DNA from: Stegostoma tigrinum
Taxonomy: Eukaryota
Length of the DNA stretch: 64,000 nucleotides
Reading direction: 5' to 3'
NCBI RefSeq assembly: GCF_030684315.1
Contig: NC_081364.1
Coordinates: 55,452,152-55,516,151, forward strand
Position 1 is the stretch's first letter. Each line of letters begins with the position of its first letter. The notes under the pieces were generated by a model. The model did no database searches, was not told where the DNA came from, and was given only the letters and a program-made list of their open reading frames with translations. This document shows, in pieces, positions 5,005-61,056 of this stretch. Both the position numbers and the translations under genes were made by a program.

Positions 5005-6075
5005 TTTTCTTCTTGGCTCATGGGCTGTGAGTATCGCTGGATAGACAAGCATTTTTTGCTTATCTCTAATTGCTCTGGTGTGGTGATCTGCTGCCTTCTT
5101 GCACTGCTGTAAGAGTTGTGTCCTTGGGGTAGAAGGAGCTGTTAGGGAATGAGAAACTGAACCAACAACAGTGAAAGACTGGCAGTATGCTTCCAGTTCA
5201 GGATAGTGTATGGCTTAGACAAGAACTTGCAAGTTTTGATTTTCCCCTGCATCTGCTGTTCTTTTCCTTCTATGCAGTGGAGGTGGGTTTGGAAGGTGTT
5301 GTCAAAGGTACTTTAAGGAGTTATGCAGCGTGTTTTAGTGATGGCACTTACAGCTGCCAATGTACATTTGTGTTGAAATTAAGGATTGTTAAAGGCGAGG
5401 GATAGTGTGCCAATCAAGTACTTTTATGATTTTGGATGGTGAGATACTTCATGAGTGTTGTTGATGCTGTCCCTGCCCAGGAGAATAGAGGGTGTTCCAT
5501 CACACTCTGGACTTTTGGATGGTAGACAGACTTGAGGACACAGGAGGTGAATTACTCACTACAGAATTCCTAACACTTGTTCAAGTCTGAGTATTTTCTG
5601 AAGAAGGGTCTAGGCCTGAAACGCCAGCCTTCCTGCTCCTCTGATGCTGCTTGGCCTGCTGTGTTCATCCAGCTCTGCGCCTCGTTATCTCAGATTCTCC
5701 AGCATCTGCAGTTCCTACTATCTCTGAAACTATTATATGGATGGTCTGGTTAATTTTCTGGTAATAGTAACACTGCAGATAGTTGATGGTCAGATGTTCA
5801 GCTCAGATGACTGATCTCCCACAACCACGATTATCTTTCTCTATGCCACATATGACTCCAACCAGCAAAAAGCATTTCCTATGATTCCCATTGACTCTTT
5901 TTTTCATCGGGTTTCATTGATGCCACACTTGGCCATATGCTGGTTTGATGTCAAGTGCATTCACTCTCACTTCATCTCTGCAGTTCATTTCCTTTTGTGT
6001 CCATGTCTGGACAAAGGCTGGAATGAAACCAAGAGCTGGTGACCCTGGTGGAACCCAAACTGAGCATTGAGGAAT
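5005..6075 (-). mobile_element. Degenerate LINE family B fragment, interrupted by a Penelope end
   Basis: Collinear similarity with 31450-32170 and 34420-34620 (attcccattgactc, atgccacact, gatgtcaag). Confidence 0.6.
5598..5724 (+). mobile_element. Penelope-like element 3' end with hammerhead-like core and tail
   Basis: CTGAAGAAGGGTCTAGGCCTGAAACGCCAG...gctgtgttcatccagct...gattctccagcatctgcagttcctactatctct. Confidence 0.8.
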
Positions 6076-15029: not shown

Positions 15030-15320
15030 GATTAGATTAGATTCCCTACAATGTGGAAACAGGCCCTTCGGCCCAACAAGTCCACACTGCTCCATGCAGC
15101 ATCCCACCCAGGCCCATCACACTATAACCCACACACACCTGAACACTACGGGCAATTTAGCATGGCCAATCCACCTAGCCTGCACATCTTTGGACTGTGG
15201 GAGGAAACCGGAGCACCCAGAGGAAACCCACGCAGACATGGGGAGAATATGCAAACTCCACACAGATAGTCACCCAAAGCTGAAATTGAACCCGGGTCCC
15301 TGGCGCTGTGAGGCTGCAGC
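15030..15320 (-). mobile_element. HE1-type SINE, 5' end truncated
   Basis: (attag)n tail, then ggaaacaggcccttcggccc...ggccaatccacctagcctgcacatctttggactgtgggagg...tggcgctgtgaggc. Confidence 0.9.
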
Positions 15321-15660
15321 GGTGGACATTACAAGGTTGTTTCCGTTAGGCGGGGAGATGAGGGCCCGTGGACACAGCCTTAGAATTAGAGGGGGTCAAT
15401 TTAGAACAGAAACGAAGAGACATTTTCTTCAGCCAGAGAGTGATGGGCCTGTGGAATTCATTGCTATGGAGCGCAGTGGAGGCCGGGACATTAAATGTCT
15501 TCAAGGCAGAGATAAATAAATTCTTGATCTCACAAGGAATCAAGGGCTACGGGAAGAGTGCAGGGAAGTGGAGTTGAAATGTCCATCAGCCATGATTAAA
15601 TGGCAGAGTGGACTCGATGGGCTGAATGGCCTTACTTCCACTCCTATGTCTTCTGGTCTT
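15321..15660 (+). mobile_element. CR1-type LINE 3' fragment
   Basis: RGHSLRIRGGQFRTE..R.FFSQRV.GLWNSL motif and 3' UTR ...gctgaatggccttacttccactcctatgtctt. Confidence 0.9.
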
Positions 15661-16334
15661 AAAACATTGGCATCTAATAATGATCTCTGAAGATCACAAG
15701 GGGTCCTTTATAAATGAGAAATTTTATGCCAGACTGTAAATAGTAACTACAAATCACCCCACACTCAAGGCCATAAGGAGCAATGAAGTTGTGGGTCCTA
15801 TGGACTTCCTATCCTTATGTAAAAGGATTGCATGTGTAATAACGCCCCAATATGAGGTACAAGATGCATGTTCAAAGCAAATAAACAGAGTGTTACGTTG
15901 ACATCCCTACAACATACAAATTTAATCGAAATGCAACATCCTCCCCATTGTACGATATAAATGACGCATTAAAGATTGAGAATTTAATGAATTTAACATG
16001 ACAGCATATGGTCAATGGCCATTTAAACAAAATGTAGACTGCAACAGATTTTTCATTTTCAATCTTCACATTAAGGGTAGCAATGTCTTTTAAGTATATA
16101 AATAATTGTATTACTTTACATGATTATTATTTGGCAATCTCTTTATTATCTTAAACAATTTTTAATCAAATGATTGTCTATAACAATGTAAATAATTATA
16201 ATTAATTATTTTATTTCTATTATAATCACAACTTGGCATCTGCCATTATAATGATTTTTCAGTGAAGCAATTATCCATTTATCAATGTCGATCAGGCAGT
16301 GTGTTGAGCAAATAGAGTGGGGGAAAAAATTTCA

Positions 16335-17660
16335 ATAAAATGTGGAGCTGGAGGAGCACAGCAGGCCAGACAGCATCTGAGGAGCAGGAAAGTTGACAAT
16401 TTGGGTTGGGGTCCTTCATCAGGACAGTGGTGGGGGGGAAAGCTCAGAAATAAATAGAGAAAGGGGGTGTGGCTAGGGGAAGGTAGCTAGGATGGTGATA
16501 GGTGGATTCAGGTAGGGGGTAGTAGAGATTGGTGAATGAGAAGGTTGGGGCAGATAAGTGAGAAGGGAGATGGCCATGTTGTGTCAGGTCAGAGAGGGAG
16601 GGCTGGACATGAGTTGAGACTTGGGTTGGGGAGACTTCGAAGCTGGTGAACCCTATGGTGAGGCTATAAGCTCCTGAGGTGGAATATACAGTGTTGTTCC
16701 TCCAATTTACATGCGAGGGTGGAGAAGGCCCAGGATGGGCATGTTCAGGGAATAGGAAGAGGAGTTGAAATGGCTGGCAACCGGAAGGCAATGCTGATTG
16801 CAACATACGGGGTGCAGATGCTCCATGAGTCGGTCACCAAGTCTGCTCTTGATCTATCCGATATAGAGGAGACCACATTGGGAGCAACAGATGCAATAGA
16901 CTAGGTTGGAATGGATACAGGTGGATCTCTGTCGGATAGGGAATGGCTGTTTGGGGTCTTGGACAGAGGTGAGAAGGAAGGTGCAGGGGCAGTTTTAGCA
17001 CTGCCTGCAGGGAAAGGTGCAGGGTGTGGTTGTTAGGGAGTGTGGAACAGACAAGGGAGTCATAGAGTAGACGATCCCTACAGAAAGCAGATAGAATCAA
17101 AGAAGCCCCACAGTGTGGAAACAGGCTCTTTGGCCCAACACGTCCATACCGACACTTGAAGCATCCCACCCAGACCAGTCCCCCCATAACCCACCTAATC
17201 TACACATCCCTGAACACCACGGGCAATTTAGCATGGCCAATCCACCTAGCCTGCACATCTTTGGACTGTGGGAGGAAACCGGTACACCCGGAGAAAGCCC
17301 ACGCAGACACGGGGAGAATGTGCAAACTCCATACAGACAGTCGCTCGAGTGTGGAATCAATCTGGGTCCCTAGTGCTGTGAGGCAGCAGTGCTAACCACT
17401 GAGCCACCGTGCCGCATGATAGAGGTAGGGAAGGAAACATCTTTTTGGTGGTGGGGTCTGACTGCAGGTGGTGAAAATGGCACAGGCTGCCATGGGTGGG
17501 GGAGGGGGGGTTGTGGGGGTGGGGGGAGGGTCTGAGGGCAGAAATGCGGGAAGTGCAGGAGATGCAGTGAGGGCACTATCGATTATGGGAGTGGAGGAAT
17601 TACGGTCCTTGAAGTCCGAGGACATTTGGGATGTCCAGGAGTGGAATGCTTCATGGACCA
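16335..17660 (-). mobile_element. Penelope-like element fragment including degenerate GIY-YIG endonuclease, interrupted by a SINE
   Basis: Minus translation at ~16815-16908 reads NLVYCICCSQCGLLYIG*IKSRLGDRLMEHL (GIY-YIG pattern). The left end carries the pLTR/hammerhead-like segment (ccttcatcag). Confidence 0.8.
17096..17417 (-). mobile_element. Full-length HE1-type SINE with GATAGA target duplication
   Basis: Minus strand starts GCGGCACGGTGGCTCAGTGGTTAGCACTGCTGCCTCACAGC (A box). GATAGA at 17090-17095 and 17418-17423. Confidence 0.92.
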
Positions 17661-18081
17661 GGGGAACTACAATTCTTTGCTTTGCTCGTGGATTTATACA
17701 TCTCTGTCCAGCTTATAGTTTCTCCAAGTCTATTGGAAGTGCAGAAACATTGTGGAGCTGTAGCACAGTAATTTTATTTATGACTGGCTGTACTGTTGCA
17801 GCAGGAGCTCCAAGTGTAGGTAGCTGTCCTGTACATCGCCTTATTTTGCAAAATCCTGAGGAGCAGAATAAAGTTTACAGGAGACAATAACTGTTTCATT
17901 TGGACCCATCCAAAATAGTATCCCTACAGCAGTTGCAGCAGTCCACTTGTACAGTTTCATTTGCAGCAATAAACAAACATGAAAGAATATGTTGTGTGAC
18001 CAAATCTTTTCTTGGCAGGGGCATAGGAAAGTGATGCGCTTATGCCTTTCTAAATGCCACAGGCTTGCAAGACATCAAATA

Positions 18082-18216
18082 AAAACCAAAAGAACTGTGG
18101 ATGCTGTAAATCAGGAACAAAACCTGGAGTTTCTGGAAAAGCTCAGCAGTTCTTGGCAGCATCTGTGAAGAAAATAAATCAGAGTTAGCGTTTTGGGTCC
18201 GGTGACTCTTTCTCAC
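18082..18216 (-). mobile_element. Penelope-like 3' end (older subfamily) immediately downstream of the exon 5 donor
   Basis: agaactgtggatgctg...ctggaaaagctcagcag...gcagcatctgtg...agagttagcgttttgggtcc...gactctttctcac. Confidence 0.65.
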
Positions 18217-18241: not shown

Positions 18242-18457
18242 CTCATCACAGGCAGCACAGCGGTACTTCTCACTCTCACAGAAATGGCGACCACACAGGA
18301 GCTTGCCACACTTCCAGAAGTAGATAAGATCCACCAGGGGTTCTCTGCACCAGGTACACAAGAAGCATGCTGGGTGCCAAAGCCTGTCATACCCTGCTCG
18401 TTCCCCATACACCACGGGGCTCTCACTGCTGACTGGCTGCTTGCAAAGCTCACAATG
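18242..18457 (-). CDS. LMCD1: LMCD1 coding exon 5 (LIM1 and start of LIM2, HCELCKQ...[46 protein letters not shown])
   Basis: Inside ORF 18185..18637. tttgtttcag|CAT ... GAT GAG|gtaggg. 216 nt, phase 0-0. Complete LIM zinc-ligand spacing. Confidence 0.97.
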
Positions 18458-19404: not shown

Positions 19405-20148
19405 GACCTTTACTCTATTATGCTAGGCATGGGCATAGTGTGTCAAGGCAAGAGAGGGATGAGGCTTCTAGATATCCCTCAGGTGCCCTTTTCTTGATGG
19501 GGTTCAAAGTTGGAAGAGACACATCAACAATGGAAGTTTTATTCCACCATACATGAAAGGTTCCCTGCCTCTCTAATTCCCCTCTTCCAGTGCCCCTAAC
19601 TGAGAGGGAATGGAATGCAATGACTGAAAGGCACAATAATATTGTAAAAGCTAGCCACATTATAAGAGGCAATATACTTGAATGCATTGTGATTAAACAT
19701 ATAGTTTCAAATGAAGTTTATATACATGTTCAGATGGCCTGTGCCACCATTGTGCTTTTATAATGTCTGAAGTTTTCTTTTCCCACCATTACACCCAGGT
19801 CATTTCTCAACATTCATAGCTGAGGTGAAGGCAAGTACTGACTGCTGTATCCTGTTAACCCAGATGACGTGAGCTGGTGTTCTCCGGTGAGCTGGGAGTT
19901 ACAGGGATCCAAGCCTGTTGATGCGTCTACTTTGGCCTAACCTGTGGGAGGCACTAGGGGCACTGGAAGAGGGGAATTAGAGAGGCAGGGAACCTTTCAT
20001 GTATGGTGGAATAAAACTTCCATTGTTGATGTGTCTCTTCCAACTTTGAACCCCATCAAGAAAAGGGCACCTGAGGGATATCTAGAAGCCTCATCCCTCT
20101 CTTGCCTTGACACACTATGCTCATGCCTAGCATAATAGAGTAAAGGTC
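19405..20148. repeat. 194-bp near-perfect inverted repeat (arms 19405-19598 and 19955-20148, 356-bp spacer)
   Basis: The arms are reverse complements with one mismatch by eye. The ORF track shows the same peptide on both strands (19418..19687- and 19944..20135+). Confidence 0.97.
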
Positions 20149-23284: not shown

Positions 23285-23740
23285 CTTTTTTCTTGCATGG
23301 GTGCCACGTGTTGCTGGCTGGGCAAGCATTTATTGCACATCCCTAACTGCCTGGAAAGTTCTGAAGAAGGGTCACAGGACCTGAAATGTTAACTCTTGAC
23401 TTTTTTCTTCACAGCTGCTGCCAGACCTGCTGCGCTTTTCCAGCAACTTCTGTTTTTTGTTCCTAATTGCCCCATGATCTTTGTGGCTAGCTAGGACCAT
23501 TTCAATTAACCACATTGGTTTGGGCTAGGAATCACAAGGAGACCAGACCAGCTAAGGTTGGCTGATTTTCTTCCTGAATCGGCATTAGTGAACCAGCTGG
23601 ATATTTACGACAATTGCATTAGGCCAGATTTATTTGAAAAATTGGATTTGAATATCTGCCTTGGCTGGATTTGAACCCATGCCACCAAAGGATTAGCTTG
23701 GGTTTCACGAGCACAGTGGCAATACCATTGTGCCACTGCA
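23285..23740 (-). mobile_element. SINE family B (degenerate) containing a Penelope end
   Basis: gcatttattgcacatccctaactgcc...gaatcac...ccagaccag...agtgaaccag...ggatttgaaccc. Confidence 0.6.
23356..23461 (+). mobile_element. Penelope-like 3' end with hammerhead-like core (4-bp stem I)
   Basis: AGTT-CTGAAGA-A-GGGTC-ACAG-GACCT-GAAATGTT-AACT. Flanked by cctaactgcc/cctaattgcc duplication. Confidence 0.7.
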
Positions 23741-26700: not shown

Positions 26701-28407
26701 TTCCTAATTACTGCTGATGAATAGATTTCCCCTTTACTGTGCTGCAAGATGACATGCAGGTTGCCCACCCACGCTTGACCTCATCCAAATGGCAAAACTT
26801 GCATGAGAAAAATGCCTATCTTTTCTTCACAAATATATAAATGCAAAGGTAGTAAGCGACTCTTTTCAATGAACAAGAAAATAACATTTTCTGAATATAT
26901 TTGGTGGAAACCGTGACAAACCACGTGTTGGCAATTTGAAAACATGCTGGTATTTTCTCAGAGAACTGTGTATTTGAGGTTTGCTTAATGCACATTTTCA
27001 AAATCGTTTCACTTCCCCTCTTGCTAATTAACCTCATCATAAGGTAACTCTGTATATATGACTTTAATTAAGTCAGACTCTGGTAATTCCACTGTAATTA
27101 GTGGTTCAGGAAGGGCAAAGGTCGGAGTTCATGTTCGAAGGCTTTATCAGAAAGCACTTGAGATTAGCCAGGCTCTGTTTTGTAGCTGGACATTCTCAGA
27201 TTTTAATGTATTCCATTCATCATTATAAGTGCTTTCAAGTGGTTGTTTCAAGTTACAACTATATTGTCTCTAACTACAAAATTCAACTTCTCAGTGAATA
27301 ATAGATTTAGTTTTTTTACCTGTTTTTGTAGCCATGTCTGCTGTCCCAGGGGGGACAATCATATTGTGATAAATGGATTTAGAAGCCGAGCATACAGTAA
27401 CATAAAAGATTACATTGCTGGGCTTATTGGTGCACTTTGTCACTCTGATATCCCTGAACTGTAACACTACTGTTGGCAGTAATTGAGGGGTAATCTCAAT
27501 AATCTAAGACCTGCTGAGATTTGGCAGTATTTTGCTTTTCTTTCAGCAGTCCAGCATCTGATTTTCATAGTGAAAGGCATTTGTGACACAAGAGACAACC
27601 TTTTCTCAGCTCTATAGTTATCCGCCGAACATCCCTATTGATCCCCCTCATTCAATCTCATAGTAACGAAGGTGACATTTCACCAGCAATATGTCATTTG
27701 TCAGAAATTGGGTGGAATCTGATAGGGGCCTAAACTATGTGGGCTCTAAGAGGAATCTCAGACAATCACATGAGAAGTTTGAGCAATAGTTAAAGGAGGA
27801 CAGTTTGAGTCTTAGTGGCAGGCAGATGCAGAAGCATAGATACGGTGAGTGTGATTAGCGTAAGTAAAGATGTGGCACTTGCCCTGGCAAAATGGAGAAT
27901 GTCACTTACGCTATTACATTGTTCCAGATGCCTGAGACTGCATTGCGTGGCAATCTCTCATACTAGGCTAATAGGACCTTATGTCATGGCCTCTTCTGCA
28001 TGGGGATAGCTGGTGACTCTCTTCGGCACCATGCCATCTACCAGGACCTTCAGTACCCTGTCCACAACATGAGACACCAATTTCCCATTGCCTGCCATGC
28101 ATGGGGAATATGTCCCAAACTGTGCAGGATAGTTCTGGACTGACAGTGCTTGTCTACAGGGTACAGCAGTCTTTTAAAGATGGCATTGATGCCAGGATGC
28201 TGGCCCATTCTAGCAGGGGTGGGTTGTTCCGGGTACAGCATGTGGTAGAATCACACTAGCATTGGCTAAACCTTGGAGGTTGGTAGATACTTAATTCAGA
28301 CAGTTTGGATAAATAGCAACACTCAGTAGGTCTGAAGGAGTGAAACCTTCGATGAAACTTGATGAAATAGATGTTTAGCTAATAAAAAGGGAAGATTCAG
28401 TCCATGA

Positions 28408-29882: not shown

Positions 29883-30257
29883 ATATTCATTTCTCTCTTG
29901 GGCCTCTGGTGGCGTTCCATTGGTTGATGCAGGACCATCCCGAGGGTCCCCTTTTGCTGTCTTGCCATTGCTAAATTGTCCCGCGGCTTCATTTTTCTGC
30001 TTTGGGTTAGCTTTTTCTTTGGCACTCCCCACCTGGCCTGGCAGTGCCACTTCTCCAACTCCTAGTGACTCATTCTTGTACTTCCTGACAAACTCCTCCA
30101 TGCTCTTCACCTCACTCTCCGACAAAGCGTGGCATTGGAAAGGGTCCTGGTCATAGACTGGCAGCTGCCTCATCAGTTGCTTACGGCGATAGTAGGCCCC
30201 TTCTGTGCCAGCAATTGGCTGCATTTCCTTTGGAATAAGTTCCATATAATGAATTGC
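29883..30257 (-). CDS. LMCD1: LMCD1 coding exon 4 (PET domain and linker, [39 protein letters not shown]...ERNEY)
   Basis: Inside ORF 29871..30368. Long (CT)-rich tract then ttgccag|GCA ... GAA TAT|gtgagt. 375 nt, phase 0-0. PET motif [28 protein letters not shown]. Confidence 0.97.
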
Positions 30258-32172: not shown

Positions 32173-34418
32173 GGCTCTAAGGGAGCTGGATCTTTCCACA
32201 TGTAAATTAAGGGTGACTTGGTGATGGGATACCAGCCTCTGCCGAGTTATTTCAGTGGCACAAGAGCAAAGTTCCTGAAGAAATTCACTCGCAACAAGCA
32301 TTTCTGGCATCATGCCATTACCAGGAAAAATGTGTGTTCCAGGCACCCCAAGTGACCTGCCTGGGCCAGTGAGTCAACAAGACCAGTTTCACCCATTGGG
32401 TGATAAAATGAGGGCGATCAAAGGTGCCCTGGTTCCCATGTCTCTACTAGAGCTTAGGACTTTCTTTAGGCTGGTGAATTATTATGGAAAGTTCATCCAT
32501 CAACTCCCAAAAAGGGCCTAACTAGGAAATGATCGCATAGCCAAGCCAATCCATAGCTTTCAGGGAAGTGAAGAAAAAGCTATCATCCTGTAAGCTGTTG
32601 GCACACCATTATCCCAAGCGAGATCTGGTATTGACATGCGAGGTCTCCCCATACAGCACTGGGATAGTATTAGGTCATAGGTGGCCCATTGGGGTGAAAC
32701 GCCCAATAGCGTATGCATCTAGGGCTTAGGCTAATGCACAGCATAAGTATGCCCAGACAGAGAAGGAAGGTTTAATGGTCATATCTGGAGTCAGGATGTT
32801 CCACCAATGCCTTTACAGACATAAATCTGTTATAACAGTAGAAAACAGGGCCCTGCCTGATCTGTTTAAAGAGGTTGAGGTGGTGCCACCCATAACATCA
32901 GGCCAAAGTATTAGAGCCCATTTGCTGCCTAAGGGCGTATAATTACAGGTTGGAACACATTCCAGGAGGCTAAGTAGTGAATGTAGAAATACTGAGCCAC
33001 CTCCCACTGGCAGATACACCACTGGTGGTATTACCACAGAATGACCTCATAACGTTTTTAAATTTTTCTGGACACGCTTCCAGTCACAGATGTCAATATC
33101 AGACTTTGGATGCAGAAAGATCTGTTCATGGCAAAACTGAAACAGCTGGTAGTGATGGGAGAAACCAAAGGGCCATCACAACCAGAACTGAAACCATTTT
33201 GAACCCATGGAGACCAGATCACAGCGGTGGACAACATATTATTATGGGGAGGAAGAGGGATTGTTTCAAGCAAACACTGCCGCCAGATACTGACTGAACT
33301 CCACCAGGGTCGTCCGAAATGAAGATGTCAACAAGAAGTTACGTCTGATGGCCAAGATTGGCTGCAGATGTAGCCGTGTTATTGGGACAGTGCCCAGAGT
33401 GCCAACAAGGGCAAAAATTACCACCTAAAGCTCCCCAACATTTGTTGCAATAGCCGGGTAAACCCTGGGCTCAGTTACTTGTTGGCTATGTAGGTTTTTC
33501 CATGGGCTCAGTGTTTTTAGTCATTTGTGGATACTCACTCAAAGTGGCTGGACGTGTACAAAGTTCCTTCATCAAACACAAGGACAACAATAGAAAAGCC
33601 GCGAGCATCTTTTGCAATGAACAGACTCCCAGAAGTGTTGGTCATAGGTAACAGACCATTGTTTACCCCAAGGGAATTTGAGTATTTCCCAAAGTTGAAA
33701 GGCATTCAACATATCAATACAGCTCCATACCATCTATCATCCAATGGCCTAGTAGATAAACCATTTGAATGCAGGCTTAAACAAACAGCTACAGTGTCAC
33801 GAGATATTGACTGTCCCAGTTCATATTTGATTCCAGGGCCACCCCTCATGCAACTACAGGGATAGCTCCAGCAGTGACACTATTGGAGAGAAGGCTTCAT
33901 ACCTCATTGGAGTAAAACATGCCCAGCTTGTCCGGGCAAATGGAAAGGTTCTCCCTCTCCATCAAGCACTGAAGAGACCTCGGAATCTGAGATGAACACT
34001 GTGGATGTCACTGCCTTATGAAGAGGATGAACTTATTCCAAGATGCTCAAGCGAGCGACTGTATGTTAAATACTGCTGGATTCAAGGCACAGTTAGAGGA
34101 ACCTGGTCCAGTTCTAGAACACCCCAGAAGGAGCTCCAAGATAAAGAACTGACCTATGTCCTCAGACTCAGAGGAGGTGGGATGTAGCAACTGTAGCAAA
34201 GTCAGCTAGGTGGACATCACAGGCTATGAGTTGTCTGATTGGGGCTGTTAATCTGGTTCAATCAAGGAGAGCTGGTTGGCAGATATAAACAGGAGTTTCA
34301 AGGGTTCTGTTCACTCTGAGAGTTGGCTCTGAGGGAGCTAGATTAATGTCAAGGGCTTACCTTTTATTTAGACGTGGAATCTTGGGGACAGGATACCGGT
34401 CTCAGTGAAGGTATTTCA
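32173..34418 (+). mobile_element. Gypsy/Ty3 LTR retrotransposon relic (partial 5' LTR 32173-32254, degenerate RT-end/RNase H/integrase, PPT, 3' LTR 34183-34418)
   Basis: ELRTFFRLVNYYGKFI (RT thumb), RNase H-like gcgtatgcatctagg / tatgcccagacagagaaggaa, integrase DTHSKWLDV...PEVLV..N.P.FT..EF...HINTAPYH.SSNGLV. Purine tract GAGGAGGTGGGA before TG. Both LTRs end ggatacc.g.ctc....tatttCA. Confidence 0.9.
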
Positions 34419-35040: not shown

Positions 35041-35707
35041 GCCCTTCCCAGAATCCCACATTATGAAGGCAAGAATGCTGAACGCGATTGACCACATTGA
35101 AGCCAACCTGGGCATACTGCTCTTTGAGGACTTTCAGAATCCATTGAATACGAGACTCAAATCAGGCAAACCCTTCTTGTATCTCTGTGATGCTTTGAAT
35201 TGTATAGATTTTGATGAGAAAGACGAATGGCGTGGTGTGTGATCTGACAGTAGGGTCTTTAGGGTTTGAACTCCCTCGAAAAGTGATCCACATGCAACAG
35301 GATCAGCACTCTGTGCAATGACATTCCACCTGCTCCAAATGAAACTCAAAGAGAGCACAGCAAGCAGCAATGACCAGCCTAACCACATTGCAAATGCATC
35401 TGGCCACAAAAATATGTACTGTGTAAAGACTGGCTTGTACCTAAAATCGTAACGGTGCAAGATGCCATACTTGAAATGATGACAAAATCAGAAAAAGTTC
35501 AAAATCCACTCCTTTTCCCAGGACTCGCTAAGGAGTAACAGAAGGAAAACAATTACAAAGTTTCAGTAAGCCTGCAGATCCTGTTGGGGACCGACGCTCA
35601 TATTACAGAGACTAACCTTAAATGGGTCTGAGCCATGTAGGTAAGGGAGCTCCCAGATTTGGAAAAGACTGATAAACTTTAGCCTGAGCAATGGTACCTG
35701 CATTACA

Positions 35708-35915
35708 GAAACACAGAAATTGCTGGGAAAACTCAGTAGGTCTGACAACATCTTTGGAGAGAAAGCAGAGTTAATGTTTTAAGTCCAGTTGACCCAATTT
35801 CAAACCTGGATCCAATCTGCTTTCTCTCCACAGATGCTGCCAAACCTGCTCAGTTTTCCTCGCAATTTTTGTTTACGTTTCTGATTTCCAGCATCCACAG
35901 TTCTTTGTGGGTTTT
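35708..35915. mobile_element. Palindromic Penelope-derived short insertion (older subfamily)
   Basis: Left arm aaattgctgggaaaactcagtaggtctgacaacatctttggagagaaagcaga pairs with right arm tctgctttctctccacagatgctgccaaacctgctcagttttcctcgcaattt. Tail on the right only. Confidence 0.75.
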
Positions 35916-37166: not shown

Positions 37167-37363
37167 AGGTAGTAGGAACTGCCGATGCTGGAGTCTGAGA
37201 TAATATGGTGTGGAGCTGGAGGAACACAGCAGGCCAAGCAGCATCACAGCAGCAGGAAAGCTGACGTTTCATAAATGTCTGAAGATGGGTCCCGAAACGT
37301 CAGCTTTCCTGTTCCTCTGATGTTGCCTGGCCTGCTGTGTTCCTCCAGCTCTACACCTTGTTA
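37167..37363. mobile_element. Palindromic Penelope-derived short insertion
   Basis: Tail on the left, arms meet at a reduced core CTGAAGATGGGTCCCGAAACGTC (37279-37301). Degenerate 15-bp TSD tcttaagctatagtg / tcttatgcaacaatg. Confidence 0.85.
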
Positions 37364-37959
37364 TCTTATGCAACAATGTTAGTTTATTCTCAGCTCAAGA
37401 CAATGCCTTGGTCAAGGAGTTGACGCTCACACTGAATGGCGGCTCAGAAGAGCTAGCCTCTAAATAGCTAACTGCCACTAAAATACCTGATCGTTCTCAC
37501 TGAAGAGGCTGCAGAATATTTTGGTGGCTAGCACTTCCAACTACTGTCCTCAGCCAACAACAAGCAGCTCTTTAGGAGTGAAGACAGTGTTGATGTAAAT
37601 TCCAAGCAGTTCATTTATGGGTTCCTCATTTCATCTTCTCCTGCTGCTGGATCTGTAATGAGGATCTCTGAATCACATTGGTGGGACATTTAATTAAGGC
37701 TTCATCAACACTTGAGCAATTTTTATTCTGGAAATTCTCCACAGCCCCTACCTAATAATAAGCAACTGCTGTGCTATCCTATGCCACGGAATTCATTGGG
37801 AGTATGAGTAAAGGAAATCATGATAGGGATTCCCCGGACAGTCAATCAAAGGAGGACATGAGACAAAACAGAGAAGCACCATGTGTCATTGGAAGCCAAT
37901 GGATAGCAAGGGTCATGCAAGGACATACACTACACTGGCCAAACAGAATCTCTACACAT

Positions 37960-41610: not shown

Positions 41611-41987
41611 TTCCACATTGATCCTAGAGACTAGGCAACACTGCACTTTTAATAATTCTCAAGGAAATGTCATTGTGCATATCTTCTTCCTATCTAACCT
41701 CCCTTGGGAAATCTCGTTGCTTCTTATGAAATAAAATATCGTCTTATGCTTGGGCATCTGGGATAGTGAACCAGAAAATGAACCATCAAGGATGTTAGAG
41801 TTCACACAGGAAATAGCTTGAGATGTTAGCTTGTATATATTTTTTTAAACTTTTAAAGAAAATAAAACCATACAACACTATGACGGACAAGCATTCTTGG
41901 TCAAGCTAAATATTAAAATTATTTATATTTAAAGACAATACAGAGAAATGCAGATCAGGTAACAATAAACTACTTAACATTCACAGA

Positions 41988-43110
41988 GATAATGGGAACT
42001 GCAGATGCTGGAGAATCCAAGATAATAAAATGTGAGGCTGGATGAACACAGCAGACCAAGCAGCATCTCAGGAGCACAAAAGCTGATGTTTTGGGCCTAG
42101 ACCCTTCTTCAGAGAGGGGGATGGGGTGAGGGTTCTGGAATAAATACGGAGAGAGGGGGAGGCAGACTGAAGATGGAGAGAAAAGAAGATAGGTGGAGAG
42201 GAGAGTATAGGTGGGGAGGTAGGGAGGGGATAGGTCAGTCCAGGGAAGACGGACAGGTCAAGGAGGCGGGATGAGGTTAGTAGGTAGGAAATAGAGGTGC
42301 GGCTTGAGGTGGGAGGAAGGGATGGGTGAGAGGAAGAACAGGTAAGAGAGGCGGAGACAGGCTGGGCTGGTTTTGGGATGCGGCGGGGGAAGGGGAGATT
42401 TTGAAGCTTGTGAAGTCCATATTGATACCATTGGGCTGCAGGGTTCCCAAGCGGAATATGAGTTGCTGTTCCTGCAACCTTCGGGTAGCATTGTTGTGGC
42501 ATTGCTGGAGGCGAACCATATAACTCCTCTTCCCATTCTTTAGGCGACATGCCCATCATGGGCCTCCTGCAGTGCCACAATGATGCCACCCGAAGGTTGC
42601 AGGAACAGCAACTCATATTCCGCTTGGGAACCCTGTAGCCCAATGGTATCAATGTGGACTTCACAAGCTTCAAAATCTCCCCTTCCCGCACCGCATCCCA
42701 AAACCAGCCCAGTTCGTCCCCTCCCCCCACTGCATCACACAACCAGCCCAGCTCGTCACCTCCCCCCAGTGCATCCCAAAACCAGCCCAGCCTGTCTCGG
42801 CCTCCCTAACCTGTTCTTCCTCTCACCCATCCCTTCCTCCCACCTCAAGCTGCACCTCCATCTCCTACCTACTAACCTCATCCCACCTCCTTGACCTGTC
42901 CGTCTTCCCTGGACTGACCTATCTCCTCTCTACCTCCCCACCTGTACTCTCCTCTCCGTCTTCGGTCCGCCTCCACCTCTCTCCCTATTTATTCCAGAAC
43001 CCTCTCCCCATCCCCCTCTCTGATGAAGGGTCTGGGCCCGAAATGTCAGCTTTTGTGCTTCTGAGATGCTGCTTCGCCTGCTGTGTTCATCCAGCTTCAC
43101 ACTTTGTTAT
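41988..43110. mobile_element. Penelope-like element, inverted (tail-out) double 3' end with GIY-YIG C-terminus and two hammerhead-like cores
   Basis: Two opposed arms meet near 42512. Each encodes ...QCHN.ATRRLQEQQLIFRLGTL(Q/*)PNGIN.DFTSFKISP. 15-bp TSD cttaacattcacaga (41973-41987) / cttaaccttcacaga (43111-43125). Confidence 0.93.
42693..42790 (+). repeat. 39-bp minisatellite (~2.5 copies) within Penelope arm
   Basis: gcatc(c/a)ca(a/c)aaccagcccag units start at 42693, 42732 and 42771. Confidence 0.85.
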
Positions 43111-45669
43111 CTTAACCTTCACAGATACAAGATTAGGGTCCAATTTCATAAATCATTATGAGATTCCAAGAGTCGATTTATCAGAATTCTTTACAAATAT
43201 GGTTTTAATTTGTTAAGACACTGGCCATGTCACAGCATCCTCCAGTTAATAATACTTTTGAAGTGGAGTCCACGTTATAAAGTAGGAAACACCACCAATT
43301 TGGACACAACTAAATCCCACAGACTTCAAATGATAATGGCAGAAGATCTGTATTTGTGACTCTGATTGAGGGACAAATATTGATCAGAAATCACCCTTCA
43401 TTGAAATAGCACCATCAAAACTTTTACATCCACCTGAGGGCAGCCAGGGCCTTAGTTCAACATCTGAAAGATGACAAGAGTGTCCTGCACTGCTGTGATG
43501 GCCACAATCTTTATGCTGAAGTCCTGGGATCTTATGGTTCAGAGGGAGAGTCTACCAACCTAATTACCATTATTTAAGTTTAGGATACAGTTCTGATCTC
43601 TAAGTATCATGGAGTTCTGACTCACTGAGGGAATGTGGACTAAAACATTTGCCCTGCATACAAGCTTTCGAACTGACCAAAAGCTATTTCACATTTTGTG
43701 AGGAGGCCTAAAAGGAAACTGCTTGAAAATCGAATTGTAGCCAAAAGCTGCAATTGGCCGGCAGCAATGACTATGTCCCCCAGATAGAGAATCCTCGAAA
43801 GGGAAAAACCATCACAAACAAACGATTAGGAGTGCTCGCTTGCTTTCTTTGGCACACACAGCATAAGAATTATCCATGTTTTGAGTCGACAGGACTGTGC
43901 ATGATCATTTAGAGTGGGAGGCCTGTCATACACCAAGCCTCACTTGCATCTCGGCAAGGTATTGTTTGGTTACAATGATCAGGGTGTACCTGTGAAACTG
44001 AAGTATAATGTTTTGCATGCGTTCGCAGCCATCAGCTGATCCACAGTCAAAGGTTTTTGTTGAGATAGGGGGCATGCTGATTACCGGCCATTGCTCAGTT
44101 TATCGTAGGTTGCGGTAGGCCTAGAGGGGTTTTGAGTGAGTGTGAGCCCTCTCTAAACAATCTGCTGCTATGATCACATTGCTCGCTCTTCAGGGGTGGT
44201 CCTGTTTATTTCATAGCTGCTCTCTCAATATCCAGAGGTTACTTTAACTATTCAGTCCCTCATTAACAGGGCTGGGAGCTGTGACTCTCCCCTAACTTGA
44301 ACAAGAGCTCACAAGAGCTCATCGGATTTCAAACCAGTTAAATTTGCACTCCAAGCAGCAGTGTTAAGTTGCCTGGGAGGTTCTGACAATGGAGTTCATT
44401 TGAAAGTCTCTGTTGTGTTGCTTGGCTTAGATGAGTTTAAAAAAATCTGTTTCCTATAATCTGAAACAAGACAGATTGTCAGGGTGGTTACATAAGGTTC
44501 ATGCTGATACTGACAAAAGACTTACTTTACTGTGCACTTTGATCATTTGATACATTGAGGATACGCAGCCCCTTCCGAAGGTTATTAATCAGGCTAAATG
44601 AAATGCAAGTACCACTGCAGCGATCCTGCTAATTCTTGTAACAAGCACAGTTATCACTGCAGAAATACGTAAAAGGCCAATCACCAAGAGATTCATGGTG
44701 GCTGCTCAGTTTCTGATGTTTTGAAAGGGTCAAGGGAAGCTGCAGGAAAACTTCCACCAATTAGACTTCAAATGCATCTCTCCCGCGGTGAAGGGAAGTG
44801 AAAGCAGGCCAACTTCACACGATCACACACCTCACGGTTCAAACCGTTACAAGGTGAGCTGTGAAGCTGCTCTAATGGCTGGGAGGGCAAGGTTAGTAAT
44901 GCTCAAAACAATCATGAATGTTCTGAGATGCTTCTTTGTGGATCTTGTGCTTTAAACTATAGCTTGTAAAAGGTTTTTGTAAAATCAATGATCTTAATAC
45001 TGTCCCAGTTCAGGAAGAAATCCTCAGGCATCTCAACATAAAGTGATAATTTATGGCTTGTGGCATTATCAAAACATTTCTACTAGACTAGACAAATGTT
45101 TTGGATTGTATGGCATTTATCAGCAGAGGTCAGAAAACCACACATCTTACTAGTGCATTGTTAGCTTATTTCACCCAGAAGAAGTGGTTGAACCAGTTCA
45201 GACAGCCTCAAAATCCCTTGAGCGAAAGGACATAAACTGGGGGTTCATTTCTAATTGGTGTTCTTTGAGCTCTCCTGCTAAGTAAAATTATAGACATTAA
45301 AAAAAGAACGTGGATTGAATAATAGGAACTGCAGCAGAGAGTTTGATAGCACCTTTCAAGCCCATGACTTTCATCATCTAAAAGGATAAAGCAGATAAAT
45401 GGAAACACCACTGCCTGCGAGCTTCCTCTAAGACATACACTATCCTGATTTATAACAATGTTGCTGTTTCTTCACTGTTGCTGGATCAAAATTCTGGTTA
45501 CCCTTTCCCAACAGCACTGGAAGGAGTTCAAGATGGCAGATCACCACACTACGTTTTGTCGAACAAATATGATAGGCAGAAGCTGTTTGCCTTGCCAACA
45601 GCATCCACACCTCAGGTATATATATATATATTCAAAAATCAAGTCCTGGTCAGTCTGAATCTCAATTAC

Positions 45670-45965
45670 CGAGCACAGTGGCTCAGTGATTAGCATTGCT
45701 GCCTCATAGCGCCAGGACCTGGGGTTTGATTCCAGCCTTGGACAACTGTCTGTGTGGAGTTTGCACATTGTCCCTGAGTCTGGTCGGGTTTCCTCCCCCA
45801 GTCCAAAGATGTGCAGGTTAGGCCATACTAAATTGCCCTAAGTGTTCAGGGACATGTAGCTTAGGTGGGTTATAGGGGGATGAGTCTGGGTGGGATGCTC
45901 CAAGCGTTGGTGTGGGCTTGTTGGGCTGAAGGGACTGTCTCCACACTGTAGGGATTCAGTGATGC
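45670..45965 (+). mobile_element. HE1-type SINE
   Basis: gcacagtggctcagtgattagcattgctgcctcatagcgccaggacc...tgtgtggagtttgcacatt...cacactgtagggattc. Confidence 0.9.
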
Positions 45966-46436: not shown

Positions 46437-46959
46437 AGAACATAGAACATAGAACATAGAACAGTACAGCACAGAACAGGCCCTTCAGCCCACAATGTTG
46501 TGCCGACCATTGATCCTCATGGATGCACCCTCAAATTTCTGTGACCATATGCATGTCCAGCAGTCTCTTAAATGACCCCAATGACCTTGCTTCCACAACT
46601 GCTGCTGGCAACGCATTCCATGCTCTCACAACTCTCTGCGTAAAGAACCTGCCTCTGACATCCCCTCTATACTTTCCACCAACCAGCTTAAAACTATGAC
46701 CCCTCGTGCTAGCCATTTCTGCCCTGGGAAATAGTCTCTGGCTATCGACTCTATCTATGCCTCTCATTATCTTGTATACCTCAATTAGGTCCCCTCTCCT
46801 CCTCCTTTTCTCCAATGAAAAGAGACCGAGCTCAGTCAACCTCTCTTCATAAGATAAGCCCTCCAGTCCAGGCAGCATCCTGGTAAACCTCCTCTGAACC
46901 CTCTCCAAAGCATCCACATCTTTCCTATAATAGGGCGCCCAGAACTGGACGCAGTATTC
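46437..46959 (-). mobile_element. Young 5'-truncated CR1/HER1-type LINE with (TTCTATG)n tail and CAATATT TSD
   Basis: Uninterrupted 143-aa ORF EYCVQFWAPYYRKDVDALERVQRRFTRMLPGL...FTQRVVRAWNALP. CAATATT at 46430-46436 and 46960-46966. Confidence 0.95.
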
Positions 46960-47429
46960 CAATATTGTCAGAAGCTTCTGGACCTCTGGAAGGAAGTAAA
47001 AGGAACCAGAAAAGCTTTAGAAGGGCAAGTCCTGGAAAACAAAAGAATCTCTTAGAAAACCCTGTGGACAGAGGCCATTGAACTGTTTCCCATGGTTTTT
47101 CTCTCCATCCATAACACCAAACCTTTTTTGGCTGTATGTGCCTGTCTGCATGTCCACATAAGGGAAGTTCCATAAGGGAGTTAGAGTTTTAACAAGTCTA
47201 CGTCAACAGTTTACAGATTGTTTTTATCTGTAGCTAGAACTTATTTATTTGTATTAAATAGTAATTCTTCTAAGTATAGAAACCTGGTCTGTGTTTCCTG
47301 TTCGCCTCAGTTTAAGCAGATAGGTAATTTGGTATTTTTGTGTACTTTGCTACAATCTATTCACTTTTGAGAACACTTTGTTAATAGTGGGGCGTGATTT
47401 CCAGTGGACTATCTCAGTGAGGCAAGGTA

Positions 47430-48519: not shown

Positions 48520-48706
48520 AGTTCTTGGAAGTCTGAAATAAAAATACAGAAAATGGGAAAAACTGAGCAGATCTGGCAGTATGTATGTGGAGACAAACAG
48601 AGTTAATATTGCGAGTCCAGGTGACTTCTTTAGGAGAAAAATCATATCAGACTTGAAATATTAACTCTGTTTCTCTTTCTACAGATACTGCCAGACCTGT
48701 GGAGTT
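48520..48706. mobile_element. Palindromic Penelope-derived short insertion (older subfamily)
   Basis: tctggcagtatgtatgtggagacaaacagagttaatatt ... aatattaactctgtttctctttctacagatactgccagacc inverted arms. Confidence 0.7.
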
Positions 48707-52284: not shown

Positions 52285-52540
52285 CAGTTTCTGGGTCAGA
52301 CCTGGTGGGGCCCACTCATATGTGACTGTGTCAAAAGTTGGATCTTTCTTTGTTACATTGGGATTGGTAATAATCATTCTGTTCCTCTTATAAATGCGGA
52401 CTCCATCTCCTCCCTTCACCCGCGCAGTCAGATTGGAATAGTTGGAGTCAGCCAAAAGACGGCCGATTTTCCGATCATCCTCAGCATCAGAGTGCAGGCT
52501 GTGATCCTCTTGGTTGCATTTGCATGACTTGCATATCTTC
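52285..52540 (-). CDS. LMCD1: LMCD1 coding exon 3 ([85 protein letters not shown]; Cys-rich region into PET domain)
   Basis: ttttgatgcag|G AAG ATA ... AAA CTG|gtaagc. 256 nt, phase 2 to 0, completing the R codon from exon 2. The LMCD1-specific string [18 protein letters not shown] distinguishes it from TES/PRICKLE. Confidence 0.97.
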
Positions 52541-52735
52541 CTGCATCAAAAGCAAGCAAAGTAACATTAGATAGAGTTCATCTGTCTATACAGGAATGAC
52601 CATTATCTGGTGGAATCAGTCAGGTTCCAGAATTCAAAGTATCATTGCTTATTTGAGCCTTAGCACATCTGATGAAAAACCTGCACTTTGTGGAAGTCCC
52701 CGTCTGTATTTTGAAACACAAACTGTAGAGAAGTG

Positions 52736-53081
52736 AGATAATAAAGTGTGAAGCTGGATGAACACAGCAGGCCAAGCAGCATCTCAGGAGCACAAAAGCT
52801 GACGTTTCGGGCCTAGATCCTTCATCAGAGAGGGGGATGGGGAGAGGGTTCTGGAATAAATAGGGAGAGAGGGGGAGGGCGACTGAAGATAGAGAGAAAA
52901 ATCCGCCTCCCCCTCTCTCCCTATTTATTCCAGAACTCTCTCCCCATCCCCCCTCTCTGATGAAGGGTCTAGGCCCGAAACGTCAGCTTTTGTGCTCCTG
53001 AGATGTTGCTTGGCCTGCTGTGTTCATCCAGCTCCACAATTTGTTATGTCAGATTATCCAGCATCTGTAGTTCCCATTACC
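52736..53081. mobile_element. Palindromic Penelope-derived insertion with two hammerhead cores and perfect 14-bp TSD
   Basis: ACTGTAGAGAAGTG at 52722-52735 and 53082-53095; arms ~150 bp; tail on the right only. Confidence 0.95.
52957..52984 (+). ncRNA. Minimal type-I hammerhead ribozyme core (Penelope pLTR type)
   Basis: CUGAUGA-A-GGGU(CUAG)GCCC-GAAA-CGUC: both conserved boxes, stem II, palindromic ACGU stem III and GUC cleavage triplet. Stem I is only 2 bp (CU/AG). A mirror copy lies on the minus strand at 52801-52828. Confidence 0.65.
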
Positions 53082-54071
53082 ACTGTAGAGAAGTGCTTTA
53101 GTATCTGTATCACAAGTCACTATCTAATGGGACTGGGTGGTGCAACATCCAAGAACATAATCTTAGTAACATCTGGGGAGTCAACTGTAGTTCAGGCTAT
53201 TGAAATGAGCAATGAGATATTTCCCTCCCGCTTGATATGCAGAGTCACAAGTTAAACAAGAATTGGCACATGCTTTATCCACTGTGCTGTAGGAAAGAGC
53301 CTACAAAGGAAGCCTATGAAAGGAAAGATAAAACCTTCTTTTATAATTAGGCAAGAAATGGTGTCATTCGTCTGTTAACACCGCCGAGGCTCAAGAACAG
53401 AAAGTTCGAGCACTGCATTGTTGTATGTTCTGTATAGGGCACACACCTGAAGTTACAACTGAAAGCAACAATTGTATCGACACAGGGTCAGACTTGCATT
53501 GTGCCTCTGCGTGACTGTTATGTGCATGCTGTTCAATGCATCCACAGATATGAGAAAATGAGAAGGCTATATAATAGAAATAGAGAGCCCTTTTCTAACA
53601 TCACCCTCAGCACCATGGTCGAATTGGCAGTTTTCTTCTCTCTCCTCGTTTCAAGGTGGAACTCTCTTCTAAACTTGCCTGGTGGCTCTATTGGTGGCAC
53701 TGTATCCTCCCGACCGAATTACTGACAGGGACTGGTTACTTTCCAGTTTCATTTTACACTCTTCATTTCCAAATCCAAATCAATGGTTTCTCCTCTCACC
53801 CATCCTCAAACCTAGTGCCCCGGTCCTCACCAATCTGAAGCTGCAACTCTTGTTTCTCACCTCCCTCCAAGCTCATTCTAGATCAGCCTCACACACCTTC
53901 CCATTACCAGTTCCGTCTCCCCTTACCTGATCCCCGCTATGAAGGACTCTAGCCACTGCATACTGTTGGTTAGCATTACAAATTTTGGGAGGAATACTTT
54001 GGCAGGTTCTGGAACTACATTAGACCCTAATAACCCACAGATGAGACAGCAATATGAGAACAAGAGGACAT

Positions 54072-54213
54072 AAGATAACAAAGCGTGGAGCTGGATGAAC
54101 ACAACAGGCCAAGCAGCCTCTCAGGAGCACAAAAGCTGACATTTTGGGCCTAGACCCTTCATCAGAGTCTTTGTTATCTTGGATTCTCCAGCATCTGCAA
54201 TTCCCATTATCTC
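54072..54213. mobile_element. Short inverted Penelope-derived insertion
   Basis: Minus pLTR to ccttcatcagag, then plus-strand tail. Imperfect TSD tgagaac-aagagg (54055-54067) / tgagaactaagagg (54214-54227). Confidence 0.85.
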
Positions 54214-54623
54214 TGAGAACTAAGAGGGCTCAGGCAGGGAATGAAGGGTGGATGAGAAAACCAACTACAGCACAGAGGGCATTCAAGCAAGGGGCAGCAT
54301 AAAGAAATGCAGTTGCAGAAGAGGATGGTGAAATTTGGGGGTTAGACATTCCTGTCCGCAGCCAAGAACAGCAATCCTGAAGGATGTGTTGCCTGTCAGG
54401 TGACAGGGATACAGCCACTTCTCCACAGTGAGAGAGAAGCATGCAGTGGAAGGGGAAGTGTTCCATTTGCTGTGGCCCATATGGACATTTTATTACATGC
54501 GTGGGGCTAAACAAAGCGGGTTGCCCGTGGGCTGAGCAGCAAAGGGCTAAATTAAAAAGCAGAATGCGAATGGCTAACAGAATCTGAATAACTACTCAAG
54601 TCACAAGACTGTTGGCATGGAGT

Positions 54624-54739
54624 GATAATGGGAACTGTAGATGCTGGAGAATCCAAGATAATAAAATGTGAGGCTGGATGAACACAGCAGGCCCAGGAGC
54701 TCCTGAGATGCTGTGTTCATCCAGCCTCACATTTTATTA
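54624..54739. mobile_element. 116-bp palindromic Penelope-derived insertion, core deleted, perfect 14-bp TSD
   Basis: TGTTGGCATGGAGT at 54610-54623 and 54740-54753. Perfect arms ataataaaatgtgaggctggatgaacacagca / tgctgtgttcatccagcctcacattttattat. Confidence 0.93.
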
Positions 54740-55339
54740 TGTTGGCATGGAGTAATTCGGATCAGAATGCTGAATACATGACTCAGACTGGTGTGGAAGA
54801 AATGGGTTTCTATTCATGAGGGACACTGACACACTACTAGGGAAAGGGGGAGCTATACTCCTGGGTTATCCTTCACCTGACCATGCTAGGGCCAGATAAA
54901 TCATATAGCTTAAGCTATACAGCAGGTTTGCAACAAAATAGTGAGTGCGGACGTAGTGAGGAAGGTACCTATGAAGGGAGCCTTGAAAAGTTCAAGGTAA
55001 AGAATAAGGCAACAATAAACAGAAGTGATGAAGGTAATGATAAACACGGTGTAGGAAGAAGAGACAAGTGTGTAAACATAAGACAGGACCAAAGAAGGAA
55101 AATCTTGCAGCATTGATTAGACCACCTCTGGAGTACAGTCGGTTTGGCTGTAAATCGGTAGTTCCGTTCTTATGCAATCTCATATTATAAGAAAAATCGT
55201 AAAACAGCCACACCATTTAAACTAATGGGACTGGACGCATGTTATAGGCAATACAGGCAAGGAAAGTTGGCGTTCTAAATTCTTCAATCATGTTAAAGCC
55301 AATTCACATTGAAGAAACACGCGTTATATCAGAATCGAC

Positions 55340-57279: not shown

Positions 57280-57545
57280 GCACAGTGGCATGGTAGCTCA
57301 GTGGTTATCCTGTTGCCTCGCAATGCCAGGGACCTGGGAGTGATTCCAGCCTCAGGCAACTGTCTGTGTGGAGTTTGCACATTCTCCCCTTGTCTATATG
57401 GGTTTCCTCAAGGTGGACTGGCCATGCTAAATTGTTCATAGTGTCCAGGGATGTGCAGGCTGGGGGAGTTAGCCACGGGGGAAGGTGGCTCTTTGGTGCA
57501 TCGATTGATCAAATAGCCTGCTTGCACACAGTAGGGATTCTAAGG
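57280..57545 (+). mobile_element. HE1-type SINE (internally deleted)
   Basis: ggcatggtagctcagtggttatcc...ccagggacc...tgtgtggagtttgcacattctcccc...cacagtagggattct. Confidence 0.8.
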
Positions 57546-57933
57546 CTTTTAAAAAATGAGCATTTGGGGATAAAACAGGAACCAGAGTAGACTACTGAGT
57601 TCCTTGAACCAGTTGAACTATTCAGTTAGTTCATGGGAAGTCTGCATCTCAACTCCATTTACCTGTTCATACCTTTACCTAATAAACAGTTGTCAATCAC
57701 AAGACACAGCTTACAACTGACCCAGCAACAGCTGCAGAGAGAATTGCACAATTCCATTAAGTTTTGTGGAAAGGAGTGTCCTGATTTCAGTCCAAATGGC
57801 TTAATTCCATATTTTAAGAGTATGATACTGGGTTCCGGGGACTGTCAGCTTAGGAAAATGCACTTCTGTATTGAGGCTGTTGAATCCTTTTATAATTTTA
57901 AAGTCTACAATTAACTCAGCCTCAACTTCCCTA

Positions 57934-60374: not shown

Positions 60375-60475
60375 CACAAACCATAACAGAAACTGCTGGA
60401 AAAACTCAGCAGTTCTGGCAGCATCTGTGGAGAGAAAACAGAAGTAATGTTTTGAGTGCAGAGACCCTTCTTTCA
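60375..60475 (-). mobile_element. Penelope-like 3' end (older subfamily)
   Basis: acagaaactgctggaaaaactcagcagttctggcagcatctgtggagagaaaacagaagtaatgttttgagt..gacccttctttc. Confidence 0.65.
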
Positions 60476-60970
60476 AACAAGCATCCTTTCATGGAATTTC
60501 TGGAATTCACTACCTGAAAGGCTGTGGAAGATAGATTCAACAGTAATTTTCAGAAGGACATTAGCATACAGGATTACATAGGATACATGGAATGGAACCA
60601 GGCCATTTGTTACAACTGGACTAGAGTAGTGTTTATGCTCTATTCAAATCTCTTCCCACTATTCCTCATCAAAATCTACCACTGTAGCCAGGTATTCCCT
60701 TCTCCCTCATTTATCTAGTTTCCTCTTAAATGCATTTGTAATATTTGCTTAAAACATATGTCACAATAGATTCACATGTGCACCACTCATTGTGCAAAAG
60801 AGGATTCTTATGAGAATTCCTAGTTGGATTTCTTGGTGACTCGAAATTGAAATAAATTCCAGGCTGTAGGGTAAAACTGTCAATCAATAGGTCAACCAGC
60901 GCAGGCACCAAGACCTGAATGGCCTCCAACTGTGCTATGAAAGGCTACTATTAGTAGAGGAGCCACTTAC

Positions 60971-61056
60971 CTCCAAGGATGTGGCTCAAATGCTTTGCAC
61001 ATTCCTCGGCATCCCAAACAGGGAGCTCCCTTTCCGGTTTGATAAAGAATGGACAT
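60971..61056 (-). CDS. LMCD1: LMCD1 coding exon 2 (MSILYQTGKGAPCLGCRGMCKAFEPHPW-R, start of Cys-rich region)
   Basis: Not in the ORF track; read by hand. Minus strand: polypyrimidine tract ttctttctcttttag|ATG ... TGG AG|gtaagt. 86 nt, ends in phase 2. Resembles human exon 2 [30 protein letters not shown] (recalled). Confidence 0.93.

Follow-up and report, generated by a model that had tools for sequence, protein, structure and literature searches.

An inverted, 5′-truncated copy and a tail of 30-40 bp at one end are typical of Penelope-like elements (PLEs), and the origin of their tandem and inverted structures has been called undefined (PMC8557442). A PLE protein has been shown to cut and extend both strands; it starts at two internal sites, one on either side of the tail, and a dimeric form is predicted; the later steps of insertion were left unvalidated in the available text (PMC11167929). 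Minimal hammerheads are weakly active, even as dimers (PMC4209133), and cleavage by a PLE hammerhead has been reported only with the element's protein present (PMC11167929). Neptune and Nematis are recognised by a CX2-5CxxC linker, which Penelope/Poseidon lack (PMC8557442). PLE expansion has been described in whale-shark introns (bioRxiv 10.1101/443036).

The window analysed here, a 64-kb stretch of shark DNA, contains five insertions (A-E) that are copies of one common repeat, as determined by comparison within the window (Table 1). The original prediction that the five share one architecture holds for the two opposed arms and for the extension (tail) of 32-34 nt on a single arm (5/5). The arms are joined head-to-head, and the junction position differs in each insertion. 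B departs from the predicted architecture in being barely palindromic, with a true palindrome of ~12 bp, its tail-bearing arm holding so little of the repeat.

Table 1. Coordinates of the insertions, their duplications, related copies and host exons in the window.
Feature	Position	Strand	Remarks
A	52736-53081		arms in the rows below
A, tail-less arm	52736..52900	-	3′ UTR stub; hammerhead 52801-52828, one stem II mismatch
A, tail-bearing arm	52902..53081	+	tail 53048-53081
A, fully consensus minimal hammerhead core	52957..52984	+	sole such core among 10 arms; antisense to host transcript
A, duplication	52722..52735 (left); 53082..53095 (right)	+	14/14 identical
B	54072-54213		two-armed, tail on right
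B, tail-less arm	54072..54167	-	begins 2 nt upstream of hammerhead core; G12 mutated
B, tail-bearing arm	54169..54213	+	tail plus only ~9-12 nt of repeat
B, degenerate duplication	54055..54067 (left); 54214-54227 (right)	+	13-14 nt, one indel
C	54624..54739	.	tail on left; equal arms; loopless 12-nt palindrome at centre (54694-54705)
C, duplication	54610..54623 (left); 54740-54753 (right)	+	14/14 identical
D	37167..37365	.	older subfamily; tail on left; junction near 37271; 5-nt deletion in stem II
E	41988-43110		largest of the five insertions; carries GIY-YIG coding sequence
E, tail-bearing arm	41988..42511	-	GIY-YIG C-terminal codons, pyrimidine-rich 3′ UTR, mutated hammerhead, tail
E, tail-less arm	42511..43110	+	51 nt longer at 5′ end than partner; GIY-YIG codons 42519-42695, one stop
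E, duplication	41973..41987 (left); 43111-43125 (right)	+	14/15, one mismatch
F	5594..5725	+	single arm, hammerhead edge to tail end
G	16333..17654	-	longer, older related copy; thumb remnant, Cys linker, GIY-YIG
K	35706..35915	.	two-armed, one-tailed, second related family; weak duplication (p 0.046)
L	48520..48706	.	two-armed, second family
Second, older family, related hammerhead and tail	656-790, 18075-18216, 23352-23466, 27507-27559, 35706-35915, 48520-48706, 60384-60476		
Host LIM-domain exon	18242..18457	-	Pfam LIM, E 1.4e-10
Host PET-domain exon	29883..30257	-	Pfam PET, E 2.6e-29
Host exon, start of PET domain	52285..52540	-	Pfam PET, E 6e-05; AG/GT ends
Upstream host exon	60971..61056	-	in phase with 52540 acceptor

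The predicted target-site duplications of 14-15 bp were recovered as quoted for A, C and E (p 0.0002-0.0004 against ~5000 random window pairs) and in degenerate form for B, where the duplication sits 4 nt off the left end (p 0.001) and was absent from the original list. D has no detectable flanking duplication (p 0.21 against random window pairs). Seven further loci, K among them, show no clear duplication; the value for copy I (p 0.007) comes from a match that overlaps its own end. In another duplication test, N alone among seven single or old loci lies above the 99th percentile.

The arms of E encode the C-terminus of a GIY-YIG domain. A protein search with the 55-residue stretch of E gave 30 proteins among 32 candidates, the two named ones being whale-shark LOC125484857 (P0002; 87%) and zebra-shark LOC125456532 (P0003; 85%). 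Other named relatives come from bamboo shark and rays, with 61-62% for the best. P0002 matches Pfam RVT_1 (E 9e-05) and GIY-YIG (E 9e-05), and gives 0 matches in a PDB sequence search at E 0.1; P0003 has a Pfam GIY-YIG match plus a YIDD motif. Specifically, the whale- and zebra-shark relatives contain the RT catalytic motif, the thumb, a CX4CX2C linker and GIY-YIG. The CX4CX2C RT-EN linker is found in P0002 and, in a broken version, in copy G, while a CCHH motif with two Cys inside GIY-YIG is shared by copy G and all aligned relatives spanning the region. Because the Cys linker is present and Penelope/Poseidon lack it, the element is, judged from its sequence, a Neptune/Nematis-type PLE, its clade being assigned by linker motif, not by RT phylogeny. 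The predicted shark Penelope lineage is thus upheld in its PLE origin and its link to RT and GIY-YIG, but not as Penelope in the strict sense.

Over its last 80 residues, P0003 reads on through the 3′ UTR and hammerhead of these insertions, with 80% over 82 positions. The translated hammerhead region at the end of P0003 connects the terminal repeat with an RT+EN ORF of a shark, and provides the link to a PLE ORF on which the original prediction had been made to depend. The window itself holds only fragments of PLE coding sequence, with no full-length pLTR-ORF-pLTR copy in its 64 kb; Pfam searches with these fragments gave no match for either E stretch and GIY-YIG at E 0.17 for G. Two frames are open through repeat and tail (41989-42096 and 41988-42149, both on the minus strand), one of them containing an ATG, which is the pattern to be expected of an ORF start within the repeat. 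A search for the peptide so expected found 0/6 candidates at E up to 1 with one frame, and two protein matches, both to unrelated repetitive proteins, with the other.

Two ray gene models, P0033 (kinase-domain isoform) and P0081 (chitinase-domain isoform), which bear host-gene names, contain long PLE protein stretches, which represent either annotation read-through or exonisation. A 39-bp repeat is present 2.9 times at 42678-42791 in the tail-less arm of E and as one unit in the partner arm; extra 39-bp units apparently also occur in the zebra-shark protein.

Profiles built from the window's own copies, which therefore match by construction, identify 23 arms in 16 loci, belonging to at least two related families and covering 4211 bp (6.6% of the window). 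Two loci of the second family are among the seven two-armed loci. Copy G is broken by stops and frameshifts and is split at ~17095-17416 by a SINE-like insert, putatively HE1; the insert has a possible 6-nt duplication, and sequence resembling it lies near 14953-15519, 45541-45837 and 57297-57590. LINE-type RT fragments (Pfam RVT_1 at 8182-8676) and an integrase-core fragment, which matches Pfam rve at E 3e-04, below the cut-off, are located at 8182-9163, 46531-47016 and 33521-33865. A further inverted repeat at 19405-20148, with 194-nt arms of 99.5% identity and a 356-nt spacer, shows no duplication and no similarity to PLE; it could be local sequence recently duplicated in inverted orientation, a different element or an artefact of the assembly.

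The short copies could belong to a non-autonomous family, in which the RNA transcribed from its own loci, a short hairpin or a short hammerhead plus tail, would serve as the unit for copying in trans. Non-autonomous derivatives of PLEs are on record (PMC8557442; bioRxiv 10.64898/2026.07.22.740005), and 10 of the 15 arms that reach the hammerhead core lie near one 5′ end. However, no two of the seven two-armed loci in this one window share a junction (0/7), their lengths range from 116 to 1123 nt, and the 23 arms include no direct tandem hammerhead repeats, all 16 loci being opposed or single arms. Moreover, two diverged families have the short 5′ end in common, a recurrence better explained by a template feature than by one master. 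We consider a non-autonomous family improbable, and the retrozyme-like version put forward in the original prediction is not supported, because retrozymes are direct tandem repeats and the arms here are opposed and of variable length, with E coding. MITEs and L1-style twin-priming, as usually defined, were rejected on account of the overlapping, asymmetric arms and the one-sided tail.

The differing junctions and the opposed repeats indicate truncation products that arose per insertion, in agreement with the predicted severely truncated inversion products. The five insertions are very probably truncated 3′ ends of a PLE. We propose, with a probability of roughly 0.7, that each insertion is one abortive retrotransposition by a shark Neptune/Nematis-type PLE. 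The enzyme would cut the target with a stagger of 14-15 nt, and reverse transcription would be primed from both DNA ends, one priming at the outer and the other at the inner of two internal start sites bounding the tail. Both cDNAs would stop early and then be joined head-to-head, giving in order a duplication, a tail-less arm, a tail-bearing arm and a duplication; priming at a tail site near the RNA 5′ end would yield arms of 125 nt. Such copies would be dead on arrival and would add hairpins to host introns, their hammerheads probably being inactive there. The two-priming step itself is, by analogy, reasonably probable, its in vitro basis being a Poseidon-clade element, not a Neptune/Nematis one.

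The 5′ ends of the arms, numbered from the first base of the core (tail-less/tail-bearing), are at -68 or beyond/-54 in A, -2/+82 in B, +37/+37 in C, about -1/+20 in D and -509/-458 in E. In 5/7 two-armed loci the tail-less arm exceeds its partner in length (A, B, D and E, with K judged by eye); C is tied, and L shows the opposite, with a longer tail-bearing arm. This asymmetry speaks against self-priming, in which one cDNA or antisense template would fold back and copy itself into the second arm, because fold-back of a tail-primed cDNA predicts a longer tail-bearing arm. Self-priming from palindromes at inverted junctions has been proposed (PMC3846280), and C, with its loopless central palindrome and the same variants in both arms, is possibly a fold-back product. 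The junctions of A, B, D and E have no palindrome by eye, and the arms of E differ at sites common to another insertion, C. Fold-back is therefore an unlikely origin for the set as a whole.

Specifically, among 7 young arms compared over 30 columns, the tail arm of E equals both C arms at 4 variable sites, at 3 of which its own partner has another base; the argument involves 3-4 sites, one of which is homoplastic among older copies. The arms of A also differ from each other, and the A tail arm resembles the older D and F copies. Gene conversion could be the source of the pattern in E. Arm distances within insertions (10/148, 38/472) and between insertions (11/148 to 20/180) are alike and decide nothing. 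The palindromes could instead have formed after insertion, when a second copy landed beside an earlier one or when longer inverted insertions lost sequence by deletion; differing arm variants would then follow from two separate events. Consistent with later change, C has staggered deletions of 11 and 12 nt, read by eye, and the E arms are unlike each other in a 78-nt repeat block and a 20-nt gap. Against this, both arms of A, B, C and E sit within one duplication, no internal duplication is seen, and exactly one arm is tailed in each of the five, which makes a post-insertion origin very improbable.

The 15 arms reaching the hammerhead core comprise 10 that end 0-13 nt upstream of it and 5 that run on, in a count with boundaries set by eye that leaves out the 8/23 arms stopping short of the core. 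Upstream flanks of the 10 arms are at or near background, both mutually and versus the 3′ UTR, partner arms aside: the highest score among them is otherwise 12, versus a 99th percentile of 11 and scores of 17-50 for the five run-on arms. In the older families these 5′ ends are apparent ones, except in copy O, which starts 26 nt from a host splice donor and so cannot extend further. If truncation were memoryless, with a mean of 50-200 nt, a cluster of 10/15 arms of this kind would have a probability of 7e-4 to 4e-9.

All five long arms, that of the diverged copy G included, have TATTTATT at a distance of 34-35 nt on the upstream side of the core. TATTTAT is able to act as a TATA box, and such a TATA-like motif would, from its position, put the transcript start 0-13 nt upstream of the hammerhead. 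On the other strand TATTTATT reads AATAAA, and only 5/15 of its matches in the window fall within these elements, the other 10 being elsewhere. The promoter of D. virilis Penelope is TATA-less (PMC2377424). A stall at the hammerhead or at the C-rich tract would explain the 5′ peak equally well. Together, the 5′ end cluster, the longer tail-less arm and the differing arm variants suggest, in a small sample of sequences, two priming events on two templates. We regard as doubtful the fuller version of dual priming, in which a dimer would prime on two templates and the 125-nt arms would be complete transcript 5′ ends, made from the tail site near an RNA start just upstream of the hammerhead and ~30 nt below the TATA-like box.

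The core of the repeat has the marks of minimal PLE hammerheads, namely the extra base after A9 and the ACGU palindrome. The core quoted in the original prediction, CUGAUGA-A-GGGUCUAGGCCC-GAAACGUC, is exact in 1/10 arms (52957-52984, +); 6/10 arms span it, and 5 of these 6 are altered. C has no hammerhead, both of its arms ending ~37 nt downstream of the core's first base. Stem I of the 52957 hammerhead is 2 bp, and the forced hammerhead fold has -15.2 kcal/mol versus -26.0 kcal/mol unconstrained, a cost of 11 kcal/mol. In the hammerhead stems 82% of 77 cells are paired, versus at most 58% when slid; covariation in stems I and II is not above shuffles (306/500 reach the observed value). A scan of Rfam at E up to 5 gave 45 matches, none of them to a hammerhead family, the best matches being microRNA models below their cut-offs. 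A cofold of two copies gives a stable duplex without the hammerhead dimer fold. The right arm of K (35814) and copy I (50521) start, by eye, within a few bases of the predicted cleavage site; these arms are possibly copies of cleaved RNA.

Four minus-strand exons with AG/GT ends, three of them with Pfam PET or LIM, belong to a host PET-LIM gene, presumably LMCD1. The phase of exon 60971..61056 with the 52540 acceptor places A, B and C inside one intron, and the PET exon 29883..30257 places D and E in the next. The predicted intronic position of the insertions is thus supported by flanking minus-strand PET-LIM exons. Folded in the host orientation, the RNA of A reaches -282 kcal/mol (0/100 shuffles as low). 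Long dsRNA stems, also predicted for the host pre-mRNA, are present in A, C, D and E, where the longest helices are 28-72 bp, but not in B, where the longest is 11. The predicted ribozyme cores in host pre-mRNA fare worse, since the host is transcribed from the minus strand, the perfect core is antisense to it, and the only intact catalytic core on the host strand, in the tail-less arm of A, is paired inside a 147-pair hairpin. Active hammerhead cleavage of host RNA is unlikely according to these models, given the short stem I, the fold cost, covariation no higher than in shuffles, the absence of a hammerhead match in Rfam, the published low activity and the reported cleavage only in the presence of the element's protein. 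Hairpin A, 346 nt long, is separated by 196 nt from the host splice acceptor downstream of it (52540-52736) and carries AAUAAA on the host strand.

The insertions are structurally ordinary PLE debris, and their value lies in the clues they give to the insertion mechanism. At the density seen here (16 loci in 64 kb), thousands of two-armed events could be available in a single shark genome. If the two-template reading is true, shark genomes are densely packed with fossil traces of how PLEs insert, and genome-wide arm variants and 5′ ends would test how PLEs build inverted, tailed insertions. Short inverted stubs of this kind are easily mistaken for MITEs or microRNA hairpins; they also burden introns with long dsRNA.

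The inverted truncated copy, the one-sided tail and the minimal hammerhead are published PLE traits. The 5′ end cluster at the hammerhead, the longer tail-less arm and the differing arm variants are apparently new: the literature covered by our search, outside which most subscription papers fall, contained neither these structures in sharks nor two-template arms nor a 5′ peak at the hammerhead, and the killifish Neptune paper contains none of six structural terms (PMC12602865).

Metazoan PLE minimal hammerheads have, like the shark repeat, an extra base between positions 9 and 10.1, a G10.1-C11.1 pair and ACGU for helix III; their stem I is 4-5 bp, versus 2 bp in the shark and in D. virilis, and the accessible part of that paper gives no shark example (PMC4209133). 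Opposed pairs of minimal hammerheads, 100-700 bp apart, occur in Schistosoma (PMC4209133; likewise PMC8969392, PMC6765202). Non-LTR retrozymes are also PLE-derived, hammerhead-bearing and present in a chondrichthyan, but consist of direct tandem units each with a hammerhead, whereas the shark insertions are opposed and partly coding (bioRxiv 10.64898/2026.07.22.740005).

The Anolis Poseidon element PAc has the same GAAACGUC minimal core and a very short stem I, and its distance from core to start site, 117-124 nt as counted on the printed template, compares with 121-125 nt from core to tail end in the shark; PAc belongs to another clade, and inverted insertions and 5′ end positions are unexplained in the available text (PMC11167929). 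Adineta vaga Pen2/Pen2a and D. virilis Penelope share with the shark insertions the unequal inverted repeats, the duplication and the head-to-head junction, and have tails of 31 nt or 34-37 nt, versus 32-34 nt in the shark (PMC3846280, PMC2377424). Duplications are 8-10 bp in A. vaga versus 13-15 in the shark insertions (PMC3846280), and D. virilis Penelope differs in being a Penelope/Poseidon element without the Cys linker and with a TATA-less internal promoter (PMC8557442, PMC2377424). EN+ Neptune/Nematis PLEs are alike in the C-terminal GIY-YIG with two Cys in the motif, the CX2-5CxxC linker, the 5′ truncation, the inverted 5′-truncated copy, the tail and the hammerhead in the terminal repeat (PMC8557442). 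In contrast to these elements, both arms of the shark insertions are stubs, with no full ORF between them.
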